64,000 nt of DNA from a virus: UHGV virus genome UHGV-1374396; one strand, given 5' to 3'. Made by a program: the position numbers and the translations under genes. Position 1 is the stretch's first letter. The number at the start of each line of letters is the position of its first letter. Shown in pieces: positions 36,888 through 55,935 of this stretch. The notes under the pieces were generated by a model. That model saw only the letters and a list, made by a program, of their open reading frames with translations, did not search any database and was not told the DNA's origin.

Positions 36888-38006
36888 CTAATCAAGATTA
36901 ACTGACAAGAATGGGTCGATGTTCATGAAGCTTGGGAAGCTATGAGCTGTAAACATCTTACTTGAATCAAGTAACAAAGCAGCATCTTGGTACATCTTAC
37001 AGAATCCAGTTGTAAGAGAAGCATATGTTGCTTGTGTTTGGTTAGATACGATTCTTTCAGATTCAAGCATAAGCTCCTTAGCTGTAAGCTTAATAAGAGC
37101 AGCAGATCTGTCTACCAATAGTAATTGGTTATCTGGTGTATTTGGGTGAATCCAGAAGTTAGCTTGGTTTGGTACTGGGCTCTTAACGTTAAGAGTTGCA
37201 TCAGTAGTACCGCTCTTACGTTCTTTGAATTCCTTCAAATCCAACATCTCAATTGCTTGGTCTTCGCCACCGATTAAGTTTTGGTAGTTACGGCCAAGTC
37301 GAGAACCTCTTACCCAGATGTGTAATAGGTCTTTATATTGAATACCCTTGGTAGTATCATATACACCAATTACTGGAGCAGATTCAGCACCGTTAGCCAT
37401 GTTACCGTTCATTAGTACATCCATTGCCAATGAATCAAGAGCATAACCTAATTGGATACCGAAATCACGAAGGTAGATACCCAATACGTCGATTGAAACG
37501 TAGTTACGAACTTCGTCGGTTAGTTTGAAACCCTTACCAATCTTAAAGATTGATACTGACTTCTCGCCATAGCTGATGTCTCCCAATGGGATAGTTTCAG
37601 CTTCGTTAACTTTAGCTGGAGCAGCATCAGACATGTTGATGTGTGGCATTGTAACTTTAAGGTTACTTACCTTCTCATCATGTGCAATAAGATTTGGATA
37701 GAATGGAGCCTTTCTGATACCTGATACGATAGCAGTACGGATGATTTCTGGAACCAACCAACGTACTGAAGAATCTGGCATAGTGAATAGGTTCTCCATA
37801 GTAGTCATTCTAGGGTTGATACCTAACTTGTCGTAGTAGTCTTCAACTGAAAGACCATACTTTTCCTTTACCATCTCTTCTAGAGAGATATCGCAGCATA
37901 CGTTATCTTTAGTACCTGTACGAGCAGAATCCATGAACTTAACCAACTCTGGAAGTTCTTTGATAAAATCACCTGCTTTATAATTTTCGATATTTACTTT
38001 TGACAT
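36888..38006 (-). CDS. major capsid protein candidate
   Basis: 372-aa ORF downstream of the portal and protease/scaffold-position genes; called by size and synteny only. Confidence 0.45.
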   Translation of the reverse strand: MSKVNIENYKAGDFIKELPELVKFMDSARTGTKDNVCCDISLEEMVKEKYGLSVEDYYDKLGINPRMTTMENLFTMPDSSVRWLVPEIIRTAIVSGIRKAPFYPNLIAHDEKVSNLKVTMPHINMSDAAPAKVNEAETIPLGDISYGEKSVSIFKIGKGFKLTDEVRNYVSIDVLGIYLRDFGIQLGYALDSLAMDVLMNGNMANGAESAPVIGVYDTTKGIQYKDLLHIWVRGSRLGRNYQNLIGGEDQAIEMLDLKEFKERKSGTTDATLNVKSPVPNQANFWIHPNTPDNQLLLVDRSAALIKLTAKELMLESERIVSNQTQATYASLTTGFCKMYQDAALLLDSSKMFTAHSFPSFMNIDPFLSVNLD

Positions 38007-41587: not shown

Positions 41588-43090
41588 TTATATTGGTGAT
41601 ATGACAGTGTTACTTTTACCTTTACGAATGTGGTTAGTTATAGCTTTACCCATAATATCATCATCAGCAAATACATCTTCTGATAAGGCATCTTCTCCTT
41701 CAGAGTTAGATTTATGTTTACCCATAGCTACCGGTCTATTGAAACTATCATAGATGAAGGTTTTGGATTCGTATATAAAGAAAGGGTCTTTTACGATTAT
41801 GTTATCATTTCTTATATCTTCCTCTAAACCATTTATAATAACAGATCTGTTTTTTGCAGTAGTAAGCCAACCTGGAGCCTTATCAACTTCGGGTCTGGTT
41901 TTACCCTTTTTCTTAATCATTTTCTGATAGTAGTACAACCTTGGGTAACCTTCAGTCTGTAACATTGATGTTACAGCTAAACCTACGTCATTAGATTCTG
42001 GTGCTAGAGTAGCCCAGTTAAATAATTGACCAGTATCACCTAATAGTCTAGCATATTTTTCAATTGGCATTCTACCTTTATATACTGCATTCTCTTCACC
42101 ATCTTTATCCATACAGGTAAATGATGAGTAGTCGGAAGCTCTACCAGTTGCAACGTCTGCTCCTATAAAATAAGATTTAGTTTCGTCTGGTAAATTGAAT
42201 TGTAAATACTGACCGTTATATCTACGTTTTATTACTGGGTATTCTGATAGACAATCTTCGATAGCTTTGATATCCATCAAATCAAATACTGAGTTACCAG
42301 AACTAAGGAAGTCTCCATCAATCTCTTGGGCAGTACGTTTTGGTCCAAGGTTTTTTGACATAACATTATACCATTCCTGGTCACGTTCTGGGTGCATTTC
42401 CCAGAAAAGACGTATAGCATTAAAGTTATTACCTCCAGATATTGCATCTTGCCAAGTCTTATAATAGAAGCCTTGAGAACCGTATGGTGTACTGTTAACA
42501 ATAGCACTACCTCCAGTAGATAGTGTTGGTAGAGCTGCTGCCCAAATTTGACCTGCCCATCTTACAATAGCGGCTTCGTCTATAACCAATAGAGATAGTG
42601 ATTCAGAACGACCTGCTTCAGAAGATGTTGGAATTGATTCTATAAATGAACCATTCGCAAATTCAATCATTGAAGAACTACCATACTCACCTGGACGACC
42701 GTTTGTAATGGGTACCTGCATATACCAAGGTAAGTTCTTGTACATGAACTTGATCTTCTTAAGTACTTTCTTAGCAGTAGTATCTTTAATAGATATAATA
42801 TTTACCTTCTTATTGGGATGGTACATTGTTAACCAAAGACAATATGCCGATATAAGCTCAGTAATACCAGCCTGTCTAAACTTGAGTATGATGTTGAATC
42901 TCTGTAAGACAAACTGGTATAAAACTGATTTTTGATAAGGGTATAGGTCGAATCTAACCTTACCTCTTACCGGGTGTATAAGCCATAAGAATTGTGTAAA
43001 ATAGAATACATCTTTACTAACTTTAGCTAAGTTTGATATCTCATCTTTGGTAAGACCTTGTGTTGAAGTATCAATTTTTATTTTAGCCAT
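41588..43090 (-). CDS. terminase large subunit
   Basis: N-terminal ATPase: P-loop-like LKFRQAGITE; Walker B LSLLVIDEAAIV; 500 aa; followed by the portal-candidate gene. Confidence 0.7.
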   Translation of the reverse strand: MAKIKIDTSTQGLTKDEISNLAKVSKDVFYFTQFLWLIHPVRGKVRFDLYPYQKSVLYQFVLQRFNIILKFRQAGITELISAYCLWLTMYHPNKKVNIISIKDTTAKKVLKKIKFMYKNLPWYMQVPITNGRPGEYGSSSMIEFANGSFIESIPTSSEAGRSESLSLLVIDEAAIVRWAGQIWAAALPTLSTGGSAIVNSTPYGSQGFYYKTWQDAISGGNNFNAIRLFWEMHPERDQEWYNVMSKNLGPKRTAQEIDGDFLSSGNSVFDLMDIKAIEDCLSEYPVIKRRYNGQYLQFNLPDETKSYFIGADVATGRASDYSSFTCMDKDGEENAVYKGRMPIEKYARLLGDTGQLFNWATLAPESNDVGLAVTSMLQTEGYPRLYYYQKMIKKKGKTRPEVDKAPGWLTTAKNRSVIINGLEEDIRNDNIIVKDPFFIYESKTFIYDSFNRPVAMGKHKSNSEGEDALSEDVFADDDIMGKAITNHIRKGKSNTVISPI

Positions 43091-44667: not shown

Positions 44668-45699
44668 CTAACGATTAAGGCAATTGATGAACCATAAACC
44701 CACTTCGTACACAGAGCCCTTTGCTAAGGCATACCTTGCCTTATTGAGGTAGTAATTGTAATTCGATGTATTCATGTAAACCTTAAACTCATTCGGAAAG
44801 CCCATTATGTTTTTGAAGTCCTTAATCCCAATAGGCCAACCATCAGGTCTAAATTGCCTATCTGCAGGTCTTAAGGTTAATGGAGCCTTATCCCATTCCA
44901 ATCTGTAAACTCCAGGTAATGTTGACATCTTAGCTGTTTTGATTGGCCACTTCTTTTCATGTTTGAAATCATTAACCCAAAGGTCATGTATCTGACCTAC
45001 ACTGAGATTAATCTTCTTTGGGAGTTTACGGTAGTCATACATTGCAAGTACTTTATCTGACTTCGGTATCCAGTTACAGGACTCATTGATGTTAGAACAT
45101 AAGTCTAAGTCCATAACTAGAGGTTCTAATACACCTTTGGTATCTTTCAAACTATTAACTTTAAACAACGTATCAAATTTGTTCAACAGCTTTGCTTTCT
45201 TCTTAAGCACTCCAACTATTACTAAACGTTTTCTAGATAGTTGAGAATTACCAAACTCGGATACTGAACAACAATGATAGATTAGTTTATACTCAGGTAA
45301 TGATTCTTCAAAGTAAGTCTTAGGTAGTAGACTTAATAATCTGGGTAGATTCTCTAAAAGAAACATCTTAGGTTTGAAATGATTGATAGCTTCTAATACT
45401 AGATTCAAACTCTTATTCTTCTCGGGTTTACCAAGTTGTTTAACCTTTGAAAGTCTCATAATAGAAGATGCTCCACAGTCTGGAGAACTAACTATTACAT
45501 CAACTTTCTTATCAATCACATCTTCTAAGTTTCTTGTAAACAATGAACTACCAAAGTTACCTTTCCATTGTTCTTCTTTCTTAGTATGAAATACTGCTCT
45601 TGGTTCTACGTTACCAATGATATTATGTTTAGCCAGTTTCCAAGGGAATAATAAAGCTCCCTGACCAGCTGATACACCTAAAACGTTATACTTTCTCAT
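44668..45699 (-). CDS. DNA C5-cytosine methyltransferase-like protein
   Basis: Motif I-like LGVSAGQGA; motif IV-like IVSSPDCGASS (catalytic Cys present, PDC instead of PCQ); motif VI LLENLP (ENV-like); motif VIII QLSRKRLVIVG (Q.R.R...G). Confidence 0.55.
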   Translation of the reverse strand: MRKYNVLGVSAGQGALLFPWKLAKHNIIGNVEPRAVFHTKKEEQWKGNFGSSLFTRNLEDVIDKKVDVIVSSPDCGASSIMRLSKVKQLGKPEKNKSLNLVLEAINHFKPKMFLLENLPRLLSLLPKTYFEESLPEYKLIYHCCSVSEFGNSQLSRKRLVIVGVLKKKAKLLNKFDTLFKVNSLKDTKGVLEPLVMDLDLCSNINESCNWIPKSDKVLAMYDYRKLPKKINLSVGQIHDLWVNDFKHEKKWPIKTAKMSTLPGVYRLEWDKAPLTLRPADRQFRPDGWPIGIKDFKNIMGFPNEFKVYMNTSNYNYYLNKARYALAKGSVYEVGLWFINCLNR

Positions 45700-46292
45700 C
45701 CTGGAAATTGTTTTACGAACTGATTATAAGCTGCCTGTAATTTAGTATCATAACTATTTTGTTTATAACCCGGTCCATTATATCTTCTAGCAAATTCTGA
45801 CCACTGTCTAGTGTTCAAATACTTAATAATACCAGTAGTATTAAGAAAATTAATCAATAACTCTAGCTGGTTATCTTCTGATTGGGTGTTTAGGTTTACA
45901 AACTCATCAACGTTTTTACATTTACAAGCGGCATAATTTAGGCCCATTATTTGGAATAATCCCCAACTAGCAGATTTTAATGCTGCCTCCCTATCAATAA
46001 CCATAGCTCTTTTAAGACGTGTCCATTCTAATTCTCCGCCTTTGTACTTAGCTTTATTCCATGTAGGATACACTATATCGGGTTCGGTTTTTAACAGTCT
46101 TTGTAAGTCTTTATTACCTTTCTTCTTCAACTCTGCATAAAACACATGGCCTTCAAATAGTATTTTACAACGTTTTGAGGGTAAAAATCCACCTCCAACT
46201 CCTGATTCTACCAGTTTTACAGCTAGCAATGATGCTGGATGTATACCGTGTTGTCTAGCAATTTCTGCTATTCGATTATTAGTTAAACTCAT
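45696..46292 (-). CDS. endolysin, N-acetylmuramidase family (PF11860-like)
   Basis: SWGLFQIMGLNYAACKC...VDEFV...QLELLINFL...WSEFARRYNGPGYKQNSYDTKLQAAY matches the muramidase signature (SWG.FQIMG...FAR.YNGP.Y..N.YD.KL). Confidence 0.7.
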   Translation of the reverse strand: MSLTNNRIAEIARQHGIHPASLLAVKLVESGVGGGFLPSKRCKILFEGHVFYAELKKKGNKDLQRLLKTEPDIVYPTWNKAKYKGGELEWTRLKRAMVIDREAALKSASWGLFQIMGLNYAACKCKNVDEFVNLNTQSEDNQLELLINFLNTTGIIKYLNTRQWSEFARRYNGPGYKQNSYDTKLQAAYNQFVKQFPG

Positions 46293-46455
46293 ATACTATA
46301 ATTTTATGTTAATTAATATGTAGAATACAAGGGAGTATTGCTATAAGGCCTGTCTGTTACAGATTTATAGGTAATATTTTCAACGCATTTAGTTAATAAA
46401 CTGTTAAATAGGCTTACAGTAAAGCTACCTCAAGCCGGAGAAAGGTATTTCAAGA

Positions 46456-46487
46456 TTTGCATAATTAAAAAAATATTAGTATATTTG
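46456..46487 (+). promoter_or_regulatory. Bacteroidota-type promoter: TTTG (46456-46459), 20 bp, TATATTTG (46480-46487)
   Basis: Consensus TTTG/TAnnTTTG with canonical spacing, 35 nt upstream of the ATG at 46523. Confidence 0.55.
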
Positions 46488-46522
46488 CAATATAAAATAA
46501 AACAATAATAATTTTATAATTT

Positions 46523-46924
46523 ATGGAGAAAATAAAACTAACAAGTAGAGATCAAGTACTATTCTACGATGGTAAATCAATCATTGAATTAGTATCAGTA
46601 AAGAGTTTAATCAAGGACAGTGATGAAATACTGCTTTCCAATGGGGTTAAAATAAAGATGGAATCCAATAAAACTGGTGATTTCAGAAGAACCGATTATA
46701 AGAGAACTGAATTTAGAAAAGAAGGTTATCTTGGTTTCATTAGAAAATACGAAGAAGGTTCAACTGATAAATACCATCAGTTTTATAATGCTATCTTAGC
46801 TAAGATAGGGTTAAAGGTAAAGCTTAATAAGATAATGAATTTATTAACTTCAACTCCAAATGAGCTTATATTAGATACAGAAAGCCAGGAATATTTAATC
46901 AAACTTAATAAAAAGATAAAGTAA
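46523..46924 (+). CDS. hypothetical protein (133 aa), first gene of plus-strand accessory cassette
   Basis: ORF with promoter match upstream. Confidence 0.5.
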   Translation: MEKIKLTSRDQVLFYDGKSIIELVSVKSLIKDSDEILLSNGVKIKMESNKTGDFRRTDYKRTEFRKEGYLGFIRKYEEGSTDKYHQFYNAILAKIGLKVKLNKIMNLLTSTPNELILDTESQEYLIKLNKKIK

Positions 46925-47102
46925 ATGTACATCATTTTAATAATATACGTAATGTGTTTGCCTATCAGTTTAATGTTACTGGCAAATAGGGATTCACTCC
47001 AAGCAGTAGATAAAAGAGAAAACTCTTTACTGTTATTCTTCAAAATATGGTTAATATCACCATTCTTTATACTCAGAATGATAATCAATAAATTCTTCTA
47101 AT

Positions 47103-47396
47103 ATGTATTTACACTTTAATCACAAAGGTCAGTTTAAGGGTTACTCTCAAAAGGTACCCTTCTGGCTATTCTGGCCAGTTTGGATTTATATAATAGCCTT
47201 TCCTTTATTCCTATTTATAGGAGGTCACTTATTACCATTCATAATATTCTATGCCTGGAATCATATTATAATTCCTTGGGAACCCTGGATAAAGAAAGGC
47301 CCTGATGCTGAATATAGGCTTTGGTTAATAACTATGCTATTGGTTTGCTCATTGCCTTTATGGATATTAACTTTAACTGGGTATTGGTGGCATTAA
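47103..47396 (+). CDS. membrane protein (97 aa, 3 predicted TM)
   Basis: VPFWLFWPVWIYIIAFPLFLFIGGHLLPFIIFYAW and LWLITMLLVCSLPLWILTL segments. Confidence 0.45.
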   Translation: MYLHFNHKGQFKGYSQKVPFWLFWPVWIYIIAFPLFLFIGGHLLPFIIFYAWNHIIIPWEPWIKKGPDAEYRLWLITMLLVCSLPLWILTLTGYWWH

Positions 47397-47434
47397 CCCT
47401 TGCCAGATGTGTAATATAATTTAATTCTAGTAAT

Positions 47435-47704
47435 ATGTATAATCTTATTTGGAATATCTATATAGGTAAATATATTAAAGGTTCTAGTAATACACTCCGG
47501 TTATTATTTAATAAGGATGAATCCGACCCTTTATTCGAGGACATTTGGCCTAACGAATATTTCCTAAGTGGTTCAATCGAATCCATAGAGGAACAGATTA
47601 TCGATATATCTACCAGCTACATTAGGTCCTTAGACCCTTATAATAAGTTAATCGATAGTACTAACATCAACTTTAATTATATCAACGATGAACAAAACCT
47701 TTAA
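47435..47704 (+). CDS. hypothetical protein (89 aa)
   Basis: ORF; its end overlaps the next gene start by 17 nt. Confidence 0.4.
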   Translation: MYNLIWNIYIGKYIKGSSNTLRLLFNKDESDPLFEDIWPNEYFLSGSIESIEEQIIDISTSYIRSLDPYNKLIDSTNINFNYINDEQNL

Positions 47705-48209
47705 TCACTGCGCTATTCCCTTTAACCCTTTTAGTTCTATGGTTAGGGATAGAGAACGTTTAGTAGCAACCAAAATCGGCAATCACCTCAAAGAGATATC
47801 TTTCTTCAGAAAGGTCCTTAATGTTTTCCTTATGCCTTTTTGCACTAGTAGGCAGAAACCTTTGGCTAATCAGATGCTCCAAGATATAGAGCACTTTGAT
47901 ATAGGCTTATCCTATTATCGAGGACGATGGGTAATCACTAATGGATTATACATTACACCTTACACTATGGAGGATGTGCTTAGGGTAATTAGGTTAACCT
48001 TTAAGAATTACCCTTTTAGTATGAGAAATTCAATCGTTACCCTTACCCTAAGATTAGATTATTCCTTTTGTCCTAGAAGGCATATTAGAGTATTATTCGA
48101 TAACTATGTGGAAATACTTACTGCAGAGGGATCCCTAATCTCTAAGGTTGAATATAAATGGAAAGGTAATAATATTATTAAGAGGGTAAGAAGATGGTTT
48201 GGTTATTGA
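47688..48209 (+). CDS. hypothetical protein (173 aa)
   Basis: ORF translationally coupled (overlaps) on both sides. Confidence 0.5.
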   Translation: MNKTFNHCAIPFNPFSSMVRDRERLVATKIGNHLKEISFFRKVLNVFLMPFCTSRQKPLANQMLQDIEHFDIGLSYYRGRWVITNGLYITPYTMEDVLRVIRLTFKNYPFSMRNSIVTLTLRLDYSFCPRRHIRVLFDNYVEILTAEGSLISKVEYKWKGNNIIKRVRRWFGY

Positions 48210-48391
48210 TGGCATTAGGTATATTATTTATCCTATCGTTAAGGGTAATGTTTAGGCTTTACCAGTTGAAGAAATTAGGCTATGGGTTTAGGATTAATTG
48301 GTTCTGGTTTTGGTCTGTATTTATTGCCTTCTATGCTGTATTGGCTGTAATTGTTTTGCTTCATAGGTTCATAGCTTGGTGCCTTGGCTAG
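48194..48391 (+). CDS. small membrane protein (65 aa, 2 TM)
   Basis: WLLMALGILFILSL and FWSVFIAFYAVLAVIVLL helices. Confidence 0.45.
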   Translation: MVWLLMALGILFILSLRVMFRLYQLKKLGYGFRINWFWFWSVFIAFYAVLAVIVLLHRFIAWCLG

Positions 48392-48464
48392 GTACCTCTT
48401 AACATAGGGCCCAAAAACCTGGGGCAGTAAAAACGGGGTACGGTTACCCATTAAAAAAATTAAA

Positions 48465-48500
48465 GAGTGTTAAAAATAAGGGATAATATTTTTAACACTC
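48465..48500. terminator. 14-bp perfect-stem hairpin GAGTGTTAAAAATA-N8-TATTTTTAACACTC between convergent genes (bidirectional terminator)
   Basis: Seen directly between the plus-strand stop at 48391 and the minus-strand stop at 48510; T-run follows on the plus strand. Confidence 0.6.
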
Positions 48501-48509
48501 AATTTTCAT

Positions 48510-48899
48510 TTATTTATTATCGAAAATTTTATAATATAGTTTAGTATAATTTTCTTTTAGGTTTGGGAGGTCTTCACTATAATAATAATATTTTCTTAAT
48601 AGCTTTGAAATAAAATATTTCTTAAATAAATATTCACTTAGATATATATAATAATTGCTTAACTCTATTTCATTATAATCAAGTTGAATATTATTTAATT
48701 GTTCGTTAAAAATTTCTAAATGTTCTATAAAATCTATATTTGCTAAATATCTAAATTCGTACATATTTGCAAATACTAAAATACTATTATTTGCTTTTTT
48801 ATTTAAGTAATAATGTGTATAAGTTACAGCTACAAAAGCAAACACTACAAATAAAACTATTGAAAAAAGTACACCTAATATAATAAATAAAACGTTCAT
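48510..48899 (-). CDS. membrane-anchored hypothetical protein (129 aa)
   Basis: N-terminal VLFIILGVLFSIVLFVVFAFVAV TM segment. Confidence 0.45.
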   Translation of the reverse strand: MNVLFIILGVLFSIVLFVVFAFVAVTYTHYYLNKKANNSILVFANMYEFRYLANIDFIEHLEIFNEQLNNIQLDYNEIELSNYYIYLSEYLFKKYFISKLLRKYYYYSEDLPNLKENYTKLYYKIFDNK

Positions 48900-48979
48900 A
48901 ATTTTTAATTTTAAAGATTGATTTTAATTTGATTTTTTAAATAAGTAGGTAGAATTAATTCTACCTACTTAAATACTTA

Positions 48980-49390
48980 TTATTTGCTTTCTAATTCTTT
49001 TTTACAGAGGTTCAAAGCATTTGATAAAATTTCTTTTTTCTCTGTTTTTAAATTTTCATTGCAAACGCTATTTAATGAATAATCATTAATTAAATAACAT
49101 TCTTTGTAAAAATCATTAAACGCTTTAATAAGTGCTTTTTGATTTTCTTTGTTCTTCTCATTTAAAAGAGAAGAAGCACACGAAAATAACATATTTCTTA
49201 ACTTCTTTCTTAAAGATTTTTTTTCTTTTTCGTTGCAATCTAAAAAAATCTCATCTTTATAAATAGATGCTTTTTTCGTTCCTAATGAAGTTTTAAGAAG
49301 TCCTTTTGTGTTATTTGCAAAATTTTCAATAATTGATTTTGCATTAACTACTTGCTTTGCACTCTCTAAATTTACATTTTGTTTTTTCAT
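48980..49390 (-). CDS. hypothetical protein (136 aa, Lys/Glu-rich)
   Basis: ORF with two consensus promoters upstream. Confidence 0.5.
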   Translation of the reverse strand: MKKQNVNLESAKQVVNAKSIIENFANNTKGLLKTSLGTKKASIYKDEIFLDCNEKEKKSLRKKLRNMLFSCASSLLNEKNKENQKALIKAFNDFYKECYLINDYSLNSVCNENLKTEKKEILSNALNLCKKELESK

Positions 49391-49502
49391 TTTTGTTATA
49401 GCTCTTTTTTCATTTTATTATTACTATTATTTAAGTTCTTCAAGGAGTGAAAAAAAGCTACTTAAAAATAACCCCCTTTCTAAACTTTTATTATTTACAT
49501 TG

Positions 49503-49534
49503 CAAAGTTACGAATAATATTTTAAACCTGCAAA
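49503..49534 (-). promoter_or_regulatory. Bacteroidota-type promoter (minus strand TAACTTTG at 49503-49510; -33 TTTG at 49531-49534)
   Basis: Reverse complement of plus CAAAGTTA and CAAA, 20-bp spacer. Confidence 0.5.
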
Positions 49535-49597
49535 TTTTTTCAATGTTTTTTTTTTAAATATTTTTTTGATTGAATTATTATTTTTATTTTGACAATG

Positions 49598-49628
49598 CAA
49601 AGTTATGAATAATTTTTTAATCTACAAA
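49598..49628 (-). promoter_or_regulatory. second tandem Bacteroidota-type promoter (TAACTTTG at 49598-49605; TTTG at 49625-49628)
   Basis: Same motif, 19-bp spacer; the flanking ~40 bp nearly duplicate the first copy. Confidence 0.45.
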
Positions 49629-49984
49629 GAAAAATCTAATTTTTTTTTGAGATTAATTTTTATAAACATAAATAATAAAAATTCTAAAAAGAATTATTTT
49701 TTAATACAAAAAATTTGGTTATATAAAATATTTGTATTATTTGCGTGCGTACATATATAATATATAAGAGTTCAAAAATTTGTATATTTGCATTATTAAA
49801 TTTTAATAATGCAAAATTTTGGGGCCTATAAGTTGTGTAGGCGGCCGCGTTGTTGTGTAGCCCCTATACTACTTTTCTAAAGGTACTCCAGGGGCCATAG
49901 ACAGTATATTGATATACATTAGGAATAGGCCAATAAGGCCCAGCCAACATTTTTGTTCTCCAGTAAACCGTGAATGGCCGGGAA

Positions 49985-50310
49985 CTATAATAGGGCCTTG
50001 AAAAGAACTTGGTAAGCCCAGAGGGCCCTGGATGGTTGCCTATTCGCTTCATTGTTGTGAAATTGGTAAGCGAAATTCGTTAGGCCTAGTGGATATGAAA
50101 TCGGAAACGCCTATTGCATATTGTAGCGTTACACGGAAAGGCCCGGATGGTTAGTTAAGCTTATTCAAAATCAGTAGGGCCTTGAAGACATAAGGCAAGT
50201 CACGGAAGAGATCAAATACATTAGTGGCCATTCAGGGTTATCTAAAAGGACCTCGAGGTAGAGAAATCGGAAATGTGTAAGTGATTTTGTAGCGTATATA
50301 CACAGAGAAA
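49985..50310. repeat. imperfect tandem duplication of a ~165-bp unit (each begins TAGGGCCTTGAA and contains GAAATCGGAAA...TTGTAGCGT...ACAC.GA.AAAGCC.GG)
   Basis: Aligned by eye; GC content far above the genome background. Confidence 0.55.
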
Positions 50311-50312
50311 AA

Positions 50313-50333
50313 GCCTGGGTTGTGAGCCCAGGC
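50313..50333 (-). terminator. intrinsic terminator of the acidic-protein gene (GCCTGGG-TTGTGA-CCCAGGC; on the minus strand followed by TTTTTC)
   Basis: 7-bp GC stem 26 nt downstream of the stop at 50359, A-run on the plus strand equals T-run on the coding strand. Confidence 0.6.
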
Positions 50334-50358
50334 CTAAGACCTATGATTTGAATAAGGA

Positions 50359-50874
50359 TTATTGTTGATCCTGAGGGAATTTAGAAAGGATTTCCTGGAT
50401 AGTGTTTTGTTCAGAGATTATTTGAGTAAAGTCTGGGTCGCAGAATTCGCATTGATCCTGGAGTAGTTCGTCCTGATCCTCTTTTTGTTTATCGTAGTTG
50501 ATAATGTATTGTTTTACTGGATTGATATCGATTGGGTCTTTGCCTTCGCAGTTATAGTTGTAGCAGAAGGCAATATGTTGCATTTGGTTAAATAGGTCTG
50601 GAATGTAATCGTAGAAATCGTCGTCTCCGATGAAACCGCTTTGTAGAATTTCGGTTAATTGTTTTAGGAGTTCATCGAAGGCAATTCGAGCTTCTTTGAT
50701 ATTAACCGAGTAGATGATTTGGATTCCGTTATCCATGAGTTCATCGAATAGTTCTGGGTTGGAATCTTCCAGTTCGAAGGCTTCGTAAATCCTTGTGATG
50801 TTAGTTGGGAGGTATTCTCCTGTTGTACTTGGGATAAGGAATTCGTTGGTGTTTAAGAAATTTAATTTGTTCAT
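50359..50874 (-). CDS. highly acidic hypothetical protein (171 aa), isolated between two long noncoding regions
   Basis: Roughly a quarter of residues are D/E; own promoter (50921-50952) and own terminator. Confidence 0.55.
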   Translation of the reverse strand: MNKLNFLNTNEFLIPSTTGEYLPTNITRIYEAFELEDSNPELFDELMDNGIQIIYSVNIKEARIAFDELLKQLTEILQSGFIGDDDFYDYIPDLFNQMQHIAFCYNYNCEGKDPIDINPVKQYIINYDKQKEDQDELLQDQCEFCDPDFTQIISEQNTIQEILSKFPQDQQ

Positions 50875-50920
50875 AATGACTATAAAATTTAATTATTAAT
50901 ATTGATTTATTATTACAATG

Positions 50921-50952
50921 CAAAGATACGAATAATATTTTTATTCTACAAA
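50921..50952 (-). promoter_or_regulatory. Bacteroidota-type promoter (TATCTTTG at 50921-50928; TTTG at 50949-50952)
   Basis: 20-bp spacer; about 47 nt upstream of the ATG at 50874. Confidence 0.5.
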
Positions 50953-51410
50953 TATTTTTCTAATAAAATTATTAGTGGCTGGAGATCTTAGATATAGTCA
51001 AACTGATAAGTATGAACATAAGTATCAAATTATAGGTAGTTTTCGATTAATTCTAGAGCTCTAGTATAAGTTAAGTAATATATTTATATGTTTGATTATA
51101 GGAATAATTCTTGATATAGGTAAAACTTGGGGCCATGAACGGTATCCTTGAAATCGAAAATGTGATTAAATTTACACGTACACATACGCCTTGTTGTGTA
51201 AACCTTAAAGCCCAAAGGCAAGGCCCAAATCGTAATCCTTAATCCTAAAAGGCCTAACCCCAAACACAAATAATACATAATATAAACATATCGAATAGTG
51301 TAACCTATATACATATCTAGTAATATATAATACATATACGAATATTCTTATCAATACTGAAACAACTATATTCTAGTTGTGGCCATGTACTGTAACGCAG
51401 TTAGCGAATT

Positions 51411-51421
51411 GAAATCGGAAA
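51411..51421. repeat. GAAATCGGAAA 11-mer (other copies at 50097-50107, 50263-50273 and variant 51150-51160)
   Basis: Exact and near-exact copies, each preceded by a GGCCAT-containing segment. Confidence 0.5.
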
Positions 51422-51463
51422 GCGAATCTCAAATCACCTAATCTCCTTGCCCCAAACAAACCA

Positions 51464-51655
51464 ATATATATATATATATATAATATAAACTAATACGATT
51501 AGGCTCTAGGCAATACGATTAGAGATTACGATTTAAAGTTCTACTCTACTAGCTTAGCTACTACTAGCTACTCTACACACAACGAATAATATATTCAAAT
51601 CGAATCACCTAAATCGAAAGCCTAGACCATTCTATTATATATATATATATTATAA
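51464..51655. repeat. two (TA)8-10 microsatellite tracts (about 51464-51484 and 51636-51654), each preceded by an AATCACCTAA element
   Basis: Seen directly. Confidence 0.6.
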
Positions 51656-51659
51656 AAGG

Positions 51660-51970
51660 GGCCGTTTTAGGACTACGTGTTCATTTTAGGCTTTTCGTAG
51701 CTTCCTAACGTCTGCCTTTTAGCTCTTTTTCGATTTCAAGGATTTGACGATTTCGATGACGATTAGGCTCTGGGATTTGACGATTTTATCGAAAATCTCC
51801 TCGAAAAAGTGAACGATTTGAGGCCATTTTAGGTACATTTTTATCGAAAAATAGAGCGAATTTCGTTCGAAAAAAGGCCTAAAAATGAGCGAAAAATGTA
51901 CCTTTTTAGGCTCCAAAAAGGCTCCAAAAATTGCCTAAAATAGGCAAAAAAACGGCCTTTTTAGGGCATA
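51660..51970. repeat. cluster of short direct repeats: TTTTAGG(C) about 8 times, ACGATT/GACGATTAGGCTCT, ATCGAAAA
   Basis: Seen directly; no credible ORF. Confidence 0.55.
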
Positions 51971-52376
51971 GCGGAAGGGGCTCGAAATTAGGGCCCCAAG
52001 GATTGAGAGTCGAGCTGGAAGTATAGTGTGTGTATAGTGACGTTAGGCAAACCCAAAATTTCGAAGAGCCCAGGGCCCCGGCACCGCCACCCCCGATCTG
52101 ACAAGTAGCTGTTTTTGAACTAGCTGAAGTATGTTGATAAGATACGTGTCGAGTTTTTAGTTCGAATTTTGGGGCTTATTTTCAAAGGGCAACGTTTACG
52201 ATTAAAAGGTAACGTTATCGAATACGTTTAAAGTATATATTTGGATTGGTTATATTAGGTTAGGTTTATTATGTATTCGTATATGTATAATGTGTATTGA
52301 TATTATTTAGGGATTTTCTTTGTTGGGAGTGGGGTTTGGTTGTGTATTAGGTTTAGTGTATATGTATTTACACATT

Positions 52377-52411
52377 AATAGGATCTCTATTGGTGATGTA
52401 GAGATCCTATT
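52377..52411 (-). terminator. 13-bp perfect-stem hairpin AATAGGATCTCTA-N9-TAGAGATCCTATT immediately downstream of the last gene of the right-hand gene block
   Basis: Ends 9 nt after the stop at 52420; no U-run. Confidence 0.45.
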
Positions 52412-52419
52412 CGATTGAA

Positions 52420-52731
52420 TTATTTCTGTGTTTCGTGTAGCATGTGTTTGTATACCTTTTGTAGTATTTCTGTAGAAATCGTATTGAAAGGAATACCTTG
52501 TACTAGTTCCGAGTTTCTAGATGAGCATATATATTCTAGGTTGTTGGTGACTTTGTTGATTCCGATTTCATCTATCCAGTGATAATGATTACCTTCGAAG
52601 ACTATATCGGTTGGTAGTTCGATACTCTTTTCGAATCTGTATATCCAGGTGCCACTGTATTCTTGATACTTTAGGTGGGTTATTATGTAATCTAGTATCT
52701 CTAGTGTTACTATCATATCTGTTTGTGTCAT
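52420..52731 (-). CDS. hypothetical protein (103 aa); paralogue of the C-terminal domain of the adjacent 262-aa protein
   Basis: ILDYIITHLKYQEYSGTWIYRFEKSIELPTDIVFEGNHY parallels VVNEIISHLKYKEPEEVLFYRFEQPIKLETQITHEGKHY. Confidence 0.45.
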   Translation of the reverse strand: MTQTDMIVTLEILDYIITHLKYQEYSGTWIYRFEKSIELPTDIVFEGNHYHWIDEIGINKVTNNLEYICSSRNSELVQGIPFNTISTEILQKVYKHMLHETQK

Positions 52732-53883: not shown

Positions 53884-54210
53884 TTATTTTACGTTAAAGT
53901 AGTTAGGGTCTTGGACTAATTTTACCTCTCTTGCAGTTGATAAATATTCGGAACCGGCATCAGTTTCTAATATTGGAGCATCTTCTCCTACTCCTAAGGA
54001 ATCTAGTAGAGTTTCTGTAGCCTTCATGTAAGCTTCGTATTTATGAAGGTTTTCTTGAGCCTTGTTGTAATACTTTTTGTAACAGTAGAGAGAATCTCTT
54101 GATGATTTTAGCATCTGATATAATTCGGATTCTGTTGTTTTACTGTTTGAGCATCCTGTTGTTAGTGTTCCTAAGAGGATGGCCGATAAGATAAATTTTA
54201 ATTTTTTCAT
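53884..54210 (-). CDS. putative lipoprotein (108 aa)
   Basis: Signal peptide MKKLKFILSAILLGTLTTGC with lipobox-like Cys; own promoter. Confidence 0.5.
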   Translation of the reverse strand: MKKLKFILSAILLGTLTTGCSNSKTTESELYQMLKSSRDSLYCYKKYYNKAQENLHKYEAYMKATETLLDSLGVGEDAPILETDAGSEYLSTAREVKLVQDPNYFNVK

Positions 54211-54247
54211 TTTGACTATAATTTAATTATTAATATTATTTACATTG

Positions 54248-54255
54248 CAAATTTA
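54248..54255 (-). promoter_or_regulatory. -7 box TAAATTTG (minus strand) with weak -33 element, upstream of the lipoprotein gene
   Basis: TAnnTTTG match 38 nt before the ATG. Confidence 0.4.
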
Positions 54256-54324
54256 ATCATTTTCTTTTAATTATGCAATGAACCTCGAATACAAGTTGTA
54301 ATACTTCTAGAGCTTCTAGAGAGG

Positions 54325-54684
54325 CTATTCATCGATTCTAGTTTCTACTGTACCATCTGAATACCTTCTATATGTTACATTTGGGCGACTGTTATCAATA
54401 TATGTAGCTATGGTTCTTAGTACTTCCAACTGCTGTTTTAGCTGATTTACCTGGCTCATATAGTAATCATATTCTTCTTTGGTAATCTCTTTACCTTTAA
54501 AGTAATACTTTCTATCTGCTTCAGAGTATTCATCTATATTTAGTTCATTAATACTATCGGTTTGTACCGTAGATATACTGTCTTCAGATACTATGATGTA
54601 CCTATCCTTTGGTTTATTCCACTTAAATGATAATGCTACACCTATTAAGATAATTAAACCTATACCTAAAAATATATTTCTCAT
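54325..54684 (-). CDS. membrane-anchored hypothetical protein (119 aa)
   Basis: N-terminal IFLGIGLIILIGVALSF TM helix. Confidence 0.45.
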   Translation of the reverse strand: MRNIFLGIGLIILIGVALSFKWNKPKDRYIIVSEDSISTVQTDSINELNIDEYSEADRKYYFKGKEITKEEYDYYMSQVNQLKQQLEVLRTIATYIDNSRPNVTYRRYSDGTVETRIDE

Positions 54685-54761: not shown

Positions 54762-55259
54762 TTATTGCTTTGTTAATTCTTTAATCTCTAGCATAATGCT
54801 TTTACAGGTTTGTCTGAAACCTCTTGAGGATTTTATCCATTCGTCATAGTAGATATGTCTATTACTACCTTTGATGTTCTTATACTTTGCCATTAGTCTA
54901 GCATCAAATATGAGGTCAGTGTCGGTAGTTGCTATGGCTATCATTAAAGCTTGTACCTTAGAGAGTTCATCGTCGTAAGGATCTTCTGATAGTTCTAGTT
55001 CTGAGATATTATGTTCTATGTAACTAAGAGCCTGTTTCATTGATTTGAATATAAGTATCCTCTTAGGACTTAGCAAGAATTCCAGATCTTCATATTCTGT
55101 TGATAGTTTGGACCTTACTTTCGAATGAACTGGTATTATGTGTTCTACAAATTTCTGGCCAGCCCAATTAGTTATGGTAGTACCTTCTTCCTCTATTGTG
55201 AAGTACTTATTAGAAGATATTACTTCTATGTATTCTTTAATTGTTTTAATTTTTTCCAT
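54762..55259 (-). CDS. hypothetical protein (165 aa)
   Basis: ORF. Confidence 0.45.
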   Translation of the reverse strand: MEKIKTIKEYIEVISSNKYFTIEEEGTTITNWAGQKFVEHIIPVHSKVRSKLSTEYEDLEFLLSPKRILIFKSMKQALSYIEHNISELELSEDPYDDELSKVQALMIAIATTDTDLIFDARLMAKYKNIKGSNRHIYYDEWIKSSRGFRQTCKSIMLEIKELTKQ

Positions 55260-55935
55260 ATCTATTTACCGTTATGTTGTTAGCTTCAATATTAGCATAC
55301 ATTGCTTCTACATATTTAACTAATCTCCTATATTCTTGCCCTTTGATTTTACTTTCTCCCTTGGCTTTTGCTATTAGTTCTTCTCCTGTACCGTAGAAGC
55401 ATCCAACCTTCCACATCTTATTTGAACGTGTATAAGTGATATACCTTCCACTAGACCAATAATTCTTACATATGTAGTAATCCTCTGTTACAGCTAATAT
55501 AGCATCTCCACCAATTTCTGCCCAATCATCTATGATAGTATCACCCTCTATTATAGAGTTACCATGTACTAAGGAATGCCCTTGTACAATACAGTAATCA
55601 CCAAGTTGAGAATTATCAGTTACACTAGCATTCTCTCCTATATTGCAGTAATCACGTATTTTAGAATTCCCTCGTATTCGGCAATTATCATAAGCCTTAA
55701 CTTCATTGTATAGTTTAGCATCCATAGATACTCTAGCATTATCATAAGCCATAGAGTAATCATATAACCAGCAAGTATATAGGTGACTAAGATTATATTC
55801 TCCTTCTACATAACCTCCGAGGTCACCTTTCTTTACATCATCGAAATCTTTTAAAGCCTCAATCCTATATAACTTTTTACCGTGGTAGTATATATAGAGG
55901 TCTTCTCTTAGTTTATATTTCTTTTTAAGCATCAT
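55246..55935 (-). CDS. beta-helix-like repeat protein (229 aa)
   Basis: Degenerate repeats YDNARVSMDAKL / YDNCRIRGNSKI / DYCNIGENASV / DNSQLGDYCIVQGHSLVHGNSIIEGDTII. Confidence 0.45.
   Translation of the reverse strand: MMLKKKYKLREDLYIYYHGKKLYRIEALKDFDDVKKGDLGGYVEGEYNLSHLYTCWLYDYSMAYDNARVSMDAKLYNEVKAYDNCRIRGNSKIRDYCNIGENASVTDNSQLGDYCIVQGHSLVHGNSIIEGDTIIDDWAEIGGDAILAVTEDYYICKNYWSSGRYITYTRSNKMWKVGCFYGTGEELIAKAKGESKIKGQEYRRLVKYVEAMYANIEANNITVNRYGKN

Follow-up and report, generated by a model that had tools for sequence, protein, structure and literature searches.

The 64,000-nt stretch of the virus genome UHGV-1374396 analyzed here (the window) comprises most of a tailed-phage genome, with a GC content of ~33% and genes located nearly all on the minus strand. 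Between the genes at 48980-49390 and 50359-50874 it harbors a GC-shifted, GGCC-rich intergenic block of ~500 nt (49821-50335), which is a conserved untranslated DNA region and a real noncoding element present throughout the lineage. The block is probably not transcribed, and it is interpreted here, tentatively, as a cis-acting array of protein-binding sites that possibly forms part of a replication origin or of an early-control region. A cis-element is preferred because of the oriented motifs, the GGCC cluster, the AT-rich zone, the alternating pyrimidine-purine tract and the neighboring iteron zone. The phage group is common in gut metagenomes, and almost none of its early genes has a known function. 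A conserved region with a 5- to 10-fold GGCC excess could provide a handle on the start of replication or on the organization of early transcription, and the block also marks a hyperplastic early region in which anti-defence cassettes are swapped.

Conservation of an untranslated intergenic block

No credible open reading frame (ORF) lies between the start of the minus-strand gene at 48980-49390 and the stop of the minus-strand gene at 50359-50874, as an earlier, sequence-only reading of this DNA had maintained for the spacer. The only long ORF of the spacer, which would encode 62 aa, was judged not to be a gene because it is frameshifted by a 1-nt indel in the 96%-identical homologue L001 (loci of relatives carry L numbers) and because six other homologues show no conserved frame. 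Its counterpart is absent from L005, L006, L068, L071 and L030, and it has no match in Pfam. The sequence-only reading had itself named two observations that would speak against it, a conserved protein-coding frame and an absence of conservation in related genomes; no such frame was found among the homologues compared, and the block is kept in more than 60 genomes. The GC content rises from 0.14 at 49500-49799 to 0.42-0.45 at 49800-50299, and the left flank of the block has 14-20% GC. The jump in composition noted earlier is therefore real, with its step at ~49820 rather than at 49840. Similarly, the hairpin with a NotI site that had been placed at 49834-49875 exists, ~13 nt away at 49821-49864.

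Homologues of the block were collected from three sources: a scan of IMG/VR anchored on the large terminase subunit gene TerL (484 relatives, 80 of which were fetched), a pattern scan of metagenomes, and contigs encoding homologues of the neighboring 136-aa gene (480 homologues). The 15 window-type sequences represent three lineages that are 55-60% identical to each other in the block, and an iterated nhmmer profile revealed a homologous ~240-nt element in 48 of 80 more distant loci, with TerL ~77% identical. Both the position of the block and its motif order are conserved in the more than 60 related uncultured phages, which have promoters of the Bacteroidota type. The architecture is invariant and consists of an early gene, a terminator, the block, an AT-rich zone with two outward promoters, and the 136-aa gene; lineages A, B and C have it, as do the clades of L068, L071 and L030, and a similar GGCC-rich noncoding stretch lies beside the homologous gene in MT121964.1. 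Conservation takes the form of 8-15-nt islands in a fixed order, separated by variable spacers with indels. The series of boxes starts with AATGCAAAA at the left edge and continues with GGCCAT..A..G, an inverted copy of which follows 65-95 nt downstream, then with two copies of AGAACTTGGTAAGC, TAGGCCTAGTGG, GTTACAC and the terminator. The block sequences of close relatives are 96-98% identical, compared with 93.6-94.5% overall, so that the block is conserved at least at the level of coding DNA.

Searches beyond the phage group, which had been suggested as a check for sharing outside the lineage, found no further copies. The blastn search of INPHARED with the block returned only a chance Microviridae match, located in the AT-rich part, and a scan of GTDB genomes with the block pattern gave five matches, none of them homologous by nhmmer or blastn. 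This number is consistent with the ~8 matches estimated to arise by chance, and no host or prophage copy of the block was found in that scan. A decayed gene or a functionless remnant of a horizontally acquired segment, the latter among the origins proposed from the sequence alone, is accordingly extremely unlikely and appears largely refuted by the conservation data. The GC content of the block, unlike that of both its flanks, and the presence of the 62-aa ORF could be read as traces of such a past, but the ORF is not conserved, the block exceeds the overall identity between close relatives, and it is syntenic, with motif islands that persist in relatives whose TerL is 77% identical and with no match outside the phage group in INPHARED or GTDB genomes. 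In composition, moreover, the true outlier is the AT-rich stretch at 48440-49820, the block with its 43% GC being nearer to the 33% of the genome.

GGCC clusters and oriented motifs in a putative control region

The tetranucleotide GGCC occurs 13 times in the block compared with 1.2 expected, an excess of ~10-fold, and 10 times in a second ORF-free zone (50980-52200) compared with 1.3 expected; the rest of the window contains 48 against 46 expected, and the observed/expected ratio (O/E) in the coding part is 1.0 under a Markov expectation. All block homologues are enriched, with 3-11 sites versus 0.5-1.0 expected. In a 4-kb zone of the relatives, the GGCC O/E was 5.55 versus 0.68 elsewhere and was higher in 39 of the 39 loci with a full flank, whereas CCGG, a control of equal composition, showed no enrichment (1.07 in the zone vs 1.28 elsewhere). 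Only two GGCC positions are universally conserved, and it appears to be the density of the sites rather than their position that is maintained. Other enriched motifs are oriented. The 13-mer GGCCATNNANNGT is present six times in the window (0.18 expected), five of these within 49893-51393 (four on the plus strand and one on the minus strand), and GAAATCGRAAA is present five times (0.05 expected), always in 50097-51737. The enriched 8-mers of the relatives showed strand biases of 93:1 for GGCCATTA, 62:3 for the TTTTAGG-type GTTTTAGG, 49:0 for AGTTAGGC and 40:0 for GGTAAGCC. The second zone, separated from the block by the acidic gene at 50359-50874, shares the block motifs (Table 1) and also carries TTTTAGG repeats. 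L005 and L006 have retained its iterons and (AT)n tracts, and the zone at 50930-52420 looks more origin-like than the block itself.

The homotypic cluster of GGCC cores, including GGCCATNNANNGT, and the other ordered boxes would bind one or more sequence-specific proteins. The block and the zone at 50930-52420 would form a bipartite control region around the acidic gene, acting either as a replication origin with an auxiliary site or as an organizer or insulator of early transcription. The anatomy is that of an origin in several respects: oriented repeats, an AT-rich flank, the pyrimidine-purine tract, dyads, iterons, and strong promoters that fire away; as in iteron origins, repeats of the same orientation lie beside AT-rich DNA. 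Phage P4 (ori plus crr) and SPP1 (oriL/oriR) have iteron-type origins with a second, distant cluster of binding sites. The region described here resembles them in its two noncoding clusters, which are split by a gene and contain the same short oriented repeats, as well as in the adjoining AT-rich, easily unwound DNA and the strong promoters nearby. However, it has neither a recognizable adjacent initiator gene nor DnaA boxes, and it contains several motif families rather than a single iteron.

Several observations weigh against the control-region interpretation. The neighboring early proteins have no PHROG, Pfam or NCBIfam match and include no recognizable initiator, the replication genes (helicase, primase, DnaB, ligase) are located at 1-10 kb, tens of kb away, and a DnaA-box cluster was not found. 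The cumulative GC skew, which had been suggested as a check for an origin, has no global extremum at the block and is dominated by gene orientation. In addition, the two local helices of the block, P1 and P2, are better paired than shuffles (92% of cells vs 84%), the z-score of the minimum free energy (MFE) is ~-1.7, and the strong strand bias of the motifs would equally fit an RNA or a phage-specific promoter. The assignment to an origin is held loosely because of the missing initiator gene, the missing DnaA-box cluster and the distant replication genes. A replication or packaging cis-element, as proposed from the sequence alone, is compatible with the anatomy and remains the preferred reading, with its function putative. 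It is speculative, and rather unlikely, that the block and the second zone represent an undescribed class of phage cis-elements, namely orientation-specific clusters of GGCC cores that occur throughout the lineage, an abundant one in human and rodent guts, and whose density rather than position is selected. Such clusters might, if real, be read via 5-methylcytosine added by the divergent C5 methylase of the phage, timing replication or packaging, or else as a titrating RNA.

Alternative explanations and the modular origin of the block

Clusters of methylation sites are known from E. coli oriC (GATC) and from P1 pac (hexanucleotide Dam sites). By analogy, a GGCC cluster that is a methylation-gated cis site, read via 5-methylcytosine produced by the phage's own methylase (44668-45699), is an attractive hypothesis, and one that we consider highly improbable. 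The block resembles oriC and P1 pac in its ~10-fold local excess of a 4-bp palindrome within a few hundred noncoding bases (O/E ~10 for the block itself and 5.55 across the zone of the relatives, all 39 of them enriched) and in the DNA methyltransferase encoded in the same phage genome; it differs in that its site is GGCC, the enzyme is a C5 methylase and most sites are not positionally conserved. The methylase gene, two genes upstream of TerL, has a muramidase gene (45696-46292) on one side and the terminase region on the other, and is present in the relatives examined for it. Its product has an ENL motif and carries SPDC in place of the usual catalytic PCQ, and it is so divergent that a search of PDB sequences for a guide to its specificity gave no relative, M.HaeIII included. 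Self-protection at GGCC would fit the O/E of 1.0 in the coding part, compared with 0.23 for GATC, which is strongly avoided outside 46300-52420 (41 observed vs 182 expected); yet GGCC is mildly depleted outside the zone in relatives (0.68), and only two of its positions are conserved. The TerL of T4 gp17 type and the circular assemblies also argue against this explanation, since they give no pointer to a fixed pac site. Outside 46300-52420, CGCG is absent and GCGC nearly absent, in line with a general scarcity of CpG.

The sequence-only reading had considered a structured noncoding RNA, and a covariance and structure search on homologues had been proposed as its check. In a wider form, which is considered unlikely, the block would be a noncoding RNA gene producing either a loosely structured protein sponge, like CsrB for CsrA, or else a transcript, antisense or late, started by a phage-specific promoter. 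CsrB/RsmZ-type sponge RNAs carry many short protein-binding motifs, and CsrB titrates CsrA. The block is similar in its short motif repeated many times, its poorly conserved spacers and its variable module number, and a GGCC density that is kept while sites turn over and modules vary in number is typical of sponge RNAs, as strongly strand-biased motifs would also suggest. Nevertheless, GGCC is self-complementary and the GGA of sponge RNAs is not, and Bacteroidota are not known to have CsrA. Rfam cmscan gave no match at the gathering threshold in the window and in seven relatives, and only chance-level matches at E<=10. Consensus folding of four sequences with RNAalifold yielded -22.8 kcal/mol on one strand and -20.0 kcal/mol on the other; the values were -4.96 kcal/mol (9 pairs) for 13 sequences and -6.65 kcal/mol (15 pairs) for 46 sequences, with no predicted pairs over the 3' two thirds of the block. 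The whole-block MFE z-scores of 16 homologues (mean ~-1.7 on the plus strand and ~-1.2 on the minus strand) are non-discriminating because they are modest and similar on both strands. Covariation is confined to P1 and P2. There, the observed pairing was reached in 0 of 500 shuffles and the covariation score was 0.226 versus 0.110 in shuffled data, but the number of pairs changed on both sides was not above the control (4 vs a shuffled mean of 3.8), and neither strand is favored because G.U cells (11) and A.C cells (10) are about equally frequent. P1 keeps four to five complementary pairs with different letters across three lineages. In P2, the inner pair is exchanged from C-G to U-A between the window and L101, and L005 retains the helix through two G.U pairs in the plus sense; the center of the inner helix reads A.C, A.A or U.C in three near-identical genomes, the pattern that inverted motif copies would give if their N were free to vary.

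The perfect -7 box TATATTTGCA on the plus strand at 49783 would favor an RNA, but as a promoter it was rejected since it lacks the -33 TTTG that all eight credible promoters have and is absent from lineages B and C. No full host-type (-33/-7) promoter faces the block in the 21 homologues scanned; the only conserved full promoters lie 45-305 nt to its left and point away in the 19 of 21 homologues that could be scored (two are truncated), as a tandem pair in most of these and singly in five. In the plus sense no U-tract follows the hairpin, the T-run being on the opposite strand. A conserved, extensively folded RNA is thus not supported, and the structured noncoding RNA proposed earlier fared poorly. 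An unstructured RNA, or one from a phage-specific promoter, may exist, and some single-stranded structure, in RNA or DNA, may form at P1 and P2. A degenerate tRNA cluster behind the GC shift was also rejected, as ARAGORN predicted no tRNA or tmRNA gene in the window or in 20 relatives.

Two units within the block had been described as a ~165-bp imperfect tandem duplication. The cores TAGGGCCTTGAA (49991 and 50175) and GAAATCGGAAA...TTGTAGCGT (50097-50129 and 50263-50295) do occur in both units, and the second unit does end in the terminator of the acidic gene, both as stated at the time; the T-run of this terminator is on the minus strand, at 50335-50311. However, the two copies, A and B, align in patches only, with 72% column identity and large gaps, and Tandem Repeats Finder reported nothing over them. 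The best homologues of copy B are L088 2112-1935 and L093 1266-1377, which adjoin the homologue of the acidic gene; copy B is 77% identical over 80 nt to this post-acidic-gene module, compared with 71% to copy A-type units. Since copy B is orthologous to a separate module in L088 and L093, a tandem duplication in situ was rejected. A distance of ~1.4 kb separates the two modules in L088, and three extra small genes, each with a promoter and a terminator, lie in between. These genes occupy 2200-3530 of L088; the window has none near 50150, and L110 and L107 carry other sets. In most relatives only one unit is present, and it is fused with the terminator (L001, L092, L005, L006, L088, L090, L091, L093 and others); the two-unit arrangement is common to the window, L096 and L097 (the same genotype) and L101, L096 being the 80.7-kb contig ERZ28658550 scaffold_124. 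Copies A and B are therefore paralogous terminator-proximal modules of two different early-gene cassettes, juxtaposed because the cassettes that intervene in L088 are missing here. A template/variable repeat pair of a diversity-generating retroelement, which the two imperfect copies had brought to mind, was rejected as well: copy B lies outside any ORF, the copies are not similar enough, and among the subset of ORFs whose proteins were scanned a reverse transcriptase was not found.

In T4-type phages, composite terminator/promoter boundaries known as PeSLs are repeated between small early genes (PMC2839356, PMC4122927). The early region of the present phage is similar in that its small genes each have a stem-loop terminator and an early promoter, repeated many times, at their flanks, and in that whole cassettes are inserted or missing at the repeats when close relatives are compared (window versus L088 or L110); copies A and B of the window are two such boundary modules side by side, and the hyperplastic nature of the early region explains their juxtaposition. 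The block might then be only an enlarged cassette boundary of this kind, providing termination, promoter insulation and recombination homology with no separate origin or binding function. We regard this as unlikely. It would account for the eight near-identical ~90-nt promoter-leader modules in the window, the paralogy between the post-acidic-gene module and the rightmost third of the block, GAAATCGGAAA..TTGTAGCGT..hairpin, the whole-cassette differences between close relatives exactly at this point, such as the three extra genes of L088, and the frequent breaks of assembly contigs in the region. It would not account for the other two thirds, on the left, which contain P1, P2 and the GAACTTGGTAAGC pair and are unique to this boundary and conserved across clades with different flanking genes, or for the GGCC excess, 5- to 10-fold and present in all 39 relatives, which neither termination nor recombination needs; other boundaries are ~115 nt long and not GGCC-rich (for example, 54210-54325). 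Furthermore, the promoter does not directly follow the terminator: the terminator at 50311-50335 is separated from the next promoter (-7 box 49596-605) by ~490 nt of conserved GGCC-rich DNA and ~200 nt of AT-rich DNA. Compared with the PeSLs of T4, the promoters are of the Bacteroidota -33/-7 type and not sigma-70 promoters, and the boundary spans 350-520 nt instead of tens of nt; compared with the other boundaries of the same genome, the block alone has the lineage-wide GGCC cluster and extra conserved boxes.

Many long assembly contigs of the phage group (L007/L002, L005, L006, L098 and L108) have one of their ends within the 3-kb noncoding region, at a distance of 4.9-8.9 kb upstream from TerL; L007/L002 corresponds to IMGVR_UViG_3300045988_079865. 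Genome termini or a pac site were rejected as the cause of these ends, as the 81,184-bp contig from IMG/VR forms a closed circle whose break falls at ~49670 of the window and the other break points are scattered over 3 kb. Because of this scatter, repeats and (AT)n tracts are preferred over a fixed end, and the frequent assembly breaks are attributed to the repeated promoter modules together with the (AT)n tracts.

Components of the block and genome setting

The features of the block and its surroundings are listed in Table 1. Alternating pyrimidine-purine tracts of at least 16 nt occur only four times in the window, three of them within 49742-51482, and the alternation to the left of the block is kept in all lineages though the letters differ (for example, CGCGCGCGTATGCGTGTGTATGTATAT in L088). 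The right arm of the adjacent 29-nt palindrome coincides with the conserved left-edge motif, AATGCAAAA(A)T; AATGCAAAA is retained in nearly all window-type homologues, and lineage B has a different palindrome, TTAATAGTGCAAT..ATTGCACTATTAA, in the same position. The interior of P1 consists of direct repeats of GTTGTGTAG (49832-40 and 49852-60) and the NotI site (49841-48), which is the only one in the window and is not conserved in relatives. The P1 arms stay complementary with changed letters, as GTGG/CCAC in lineage B and GTGGG/CCCAC in lineage C. In P2, the GGCC cores do not vary among the 13 sequences compared, the central N of the motif is unpaired throughout lineage A, and the inner pair is U-A in seven sequences, C-G in three, U-G in one and broken in two (n=13). 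Further to the right, AGAACTTGGTAAGC is invariant in all 15 window-type homologues, and TAGGCCTAGTGG was found also in the distant L068 clade. The position of the decayed copy A terminator is occupied by a complete hairpin, GGCC(C/A)GGA..TCCAGGCC, in L001, L092 and L101; the L001 terminator hairpin derives from the copy A position and contains U.G in the gene sense, corresponding to C.A in the plus sense. Within P2, positions 49905-49925 differ from L001 by eight substitutions within 20 nt (TATATTGATATACATTAGGA vs TATATCAATGAACAATATGA), the rest of the block being 97% identical, which suggests a local hypervariable patch or a recombination tract.

Table 1. Coordinates of features in and around the GGCC-rich block and of selected genes of the window
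Feature	Position	Strand	Remarks
Alternating pyrimidine-purine tract TGCGTGCGTACATATATA	49742-49759		~60 nt left of block
Perfect -7 box TATATTTGCA	49783	+	without -33 TTTG
29-nt perfect palindrome TTTGCATTATTAAA-T-TTTAATAATGCAAA	49787-49815
Hairpin/dyad P1, GGGGC...GCGGCCGC...GCCCC	49821-49864		arms 49821-25 and 49860-64
62-aa ORF	49864-50052	-	only long ORF in spacer; judged non-gene
Domain P2	49893-49979		inverted copies of GGCCATNNANNG; 5' arm 49893-49904, 3' arm 49968-49979
GAA(C/A)TTGGTAAGC, two copies	50005-17, 50059-71	+
TAGGCCTAGTGG	50081-92	+
Copy A core GAAATCGGAAA-N13-TTGTAGCGT	50097-50129	+
Decayed copy A terminator	50136-50155	-	5' arm GGCCCGGA kept, 3' arm lost
Copy B, terminator-proximal module of acidic gene	50153-50310	+
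Copy B boxes	GGCCATTCAGGGT 50226-38; GAAATCGGAAA 50263-73; TTGTAGCGT 50287-95
Intrinsic terminator of acidic gene	50311-50335	-	9-pair stem, 6 GC pairs, TTTTT on minus strand
Acidic 171-aa early gene	50359-50874	-	own promoter, -7 box 50919-28
Second ORF-free zone with block motifs	50930-52420
Second-zone motifs	GGCCATNNANNGT 51131, 51381; GAAATCGRAAA 51150, 51411, 51727(-)
17-nt perfect inverted repeat ATCCTTGAAATCGAAAA	51144-60 / 51727-43
TACGATTAG iterons	51495-51545		between (AT)n tracts 51464-87 and 51636-54
AT-rich cassette	48440-49820		14-24% GC vs 33% for genome
Two tandem Bacteroidota-type promoters	49496-49640	-	-7 boxes 49501-10 and 49596-605, each with -33 TTTG
Eight near-identical promoter-leader modules, ~90 nt each	10046, 46480, 49501, 49596, 50919, 54246, 56413, 59401
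Major head protein	36888-38006		PHROG match
TerL	41588-43090		PHROG match; T4 gp17 type
Divergent C5-cytosine DNA methylase	44668-45699	-	PF00145 E=6e-12; TIGR00675 below cut-off

The AT-rich cassette on the left holds two minus-strand genes (48510-48899 and 48980-49390) and is bounded by a bidirectional terminator (48465-48500) and by the twin promoters, which drive the gene at 48980-49390 and fire away from the block. The 136-aa product of this gene belongs to no known family and has 480 homologues, which come from gut metagenomes, and the acidic 171-aa protein on the other side of the block has no family match. All eight promoter modules are intergenic and consist of the -33 TTTG, ~20 nt and the -7 sequence TAnnTTTGCA, which is the Bacteroidota architecture and points to a host of that phylum; the leader ...taataattaaattatagtcaaaATG is common to several of them.

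Besides TerL and the major head protein, the portal protein, a protease, the tape measure protein and an NAD-ligase of the window have PHROG matches, and a helicase, a primase and a DnaB-like helicase are located at 5-10 kb. Among deposited genomes, those most closely related belong to uncultured phages of human and rat faeces, whose TerL is 67-77% identical (for example, MT121964.1). Many of the IMG/VR contigs of relatives are ~80 kb long, and genomes of the phage group assemble as circles. One protein of the early region (55246-55935, minus strand) carries bacterial hexapeptide-repeat motifs of the acyl/acetyltransferase type (PF00132).

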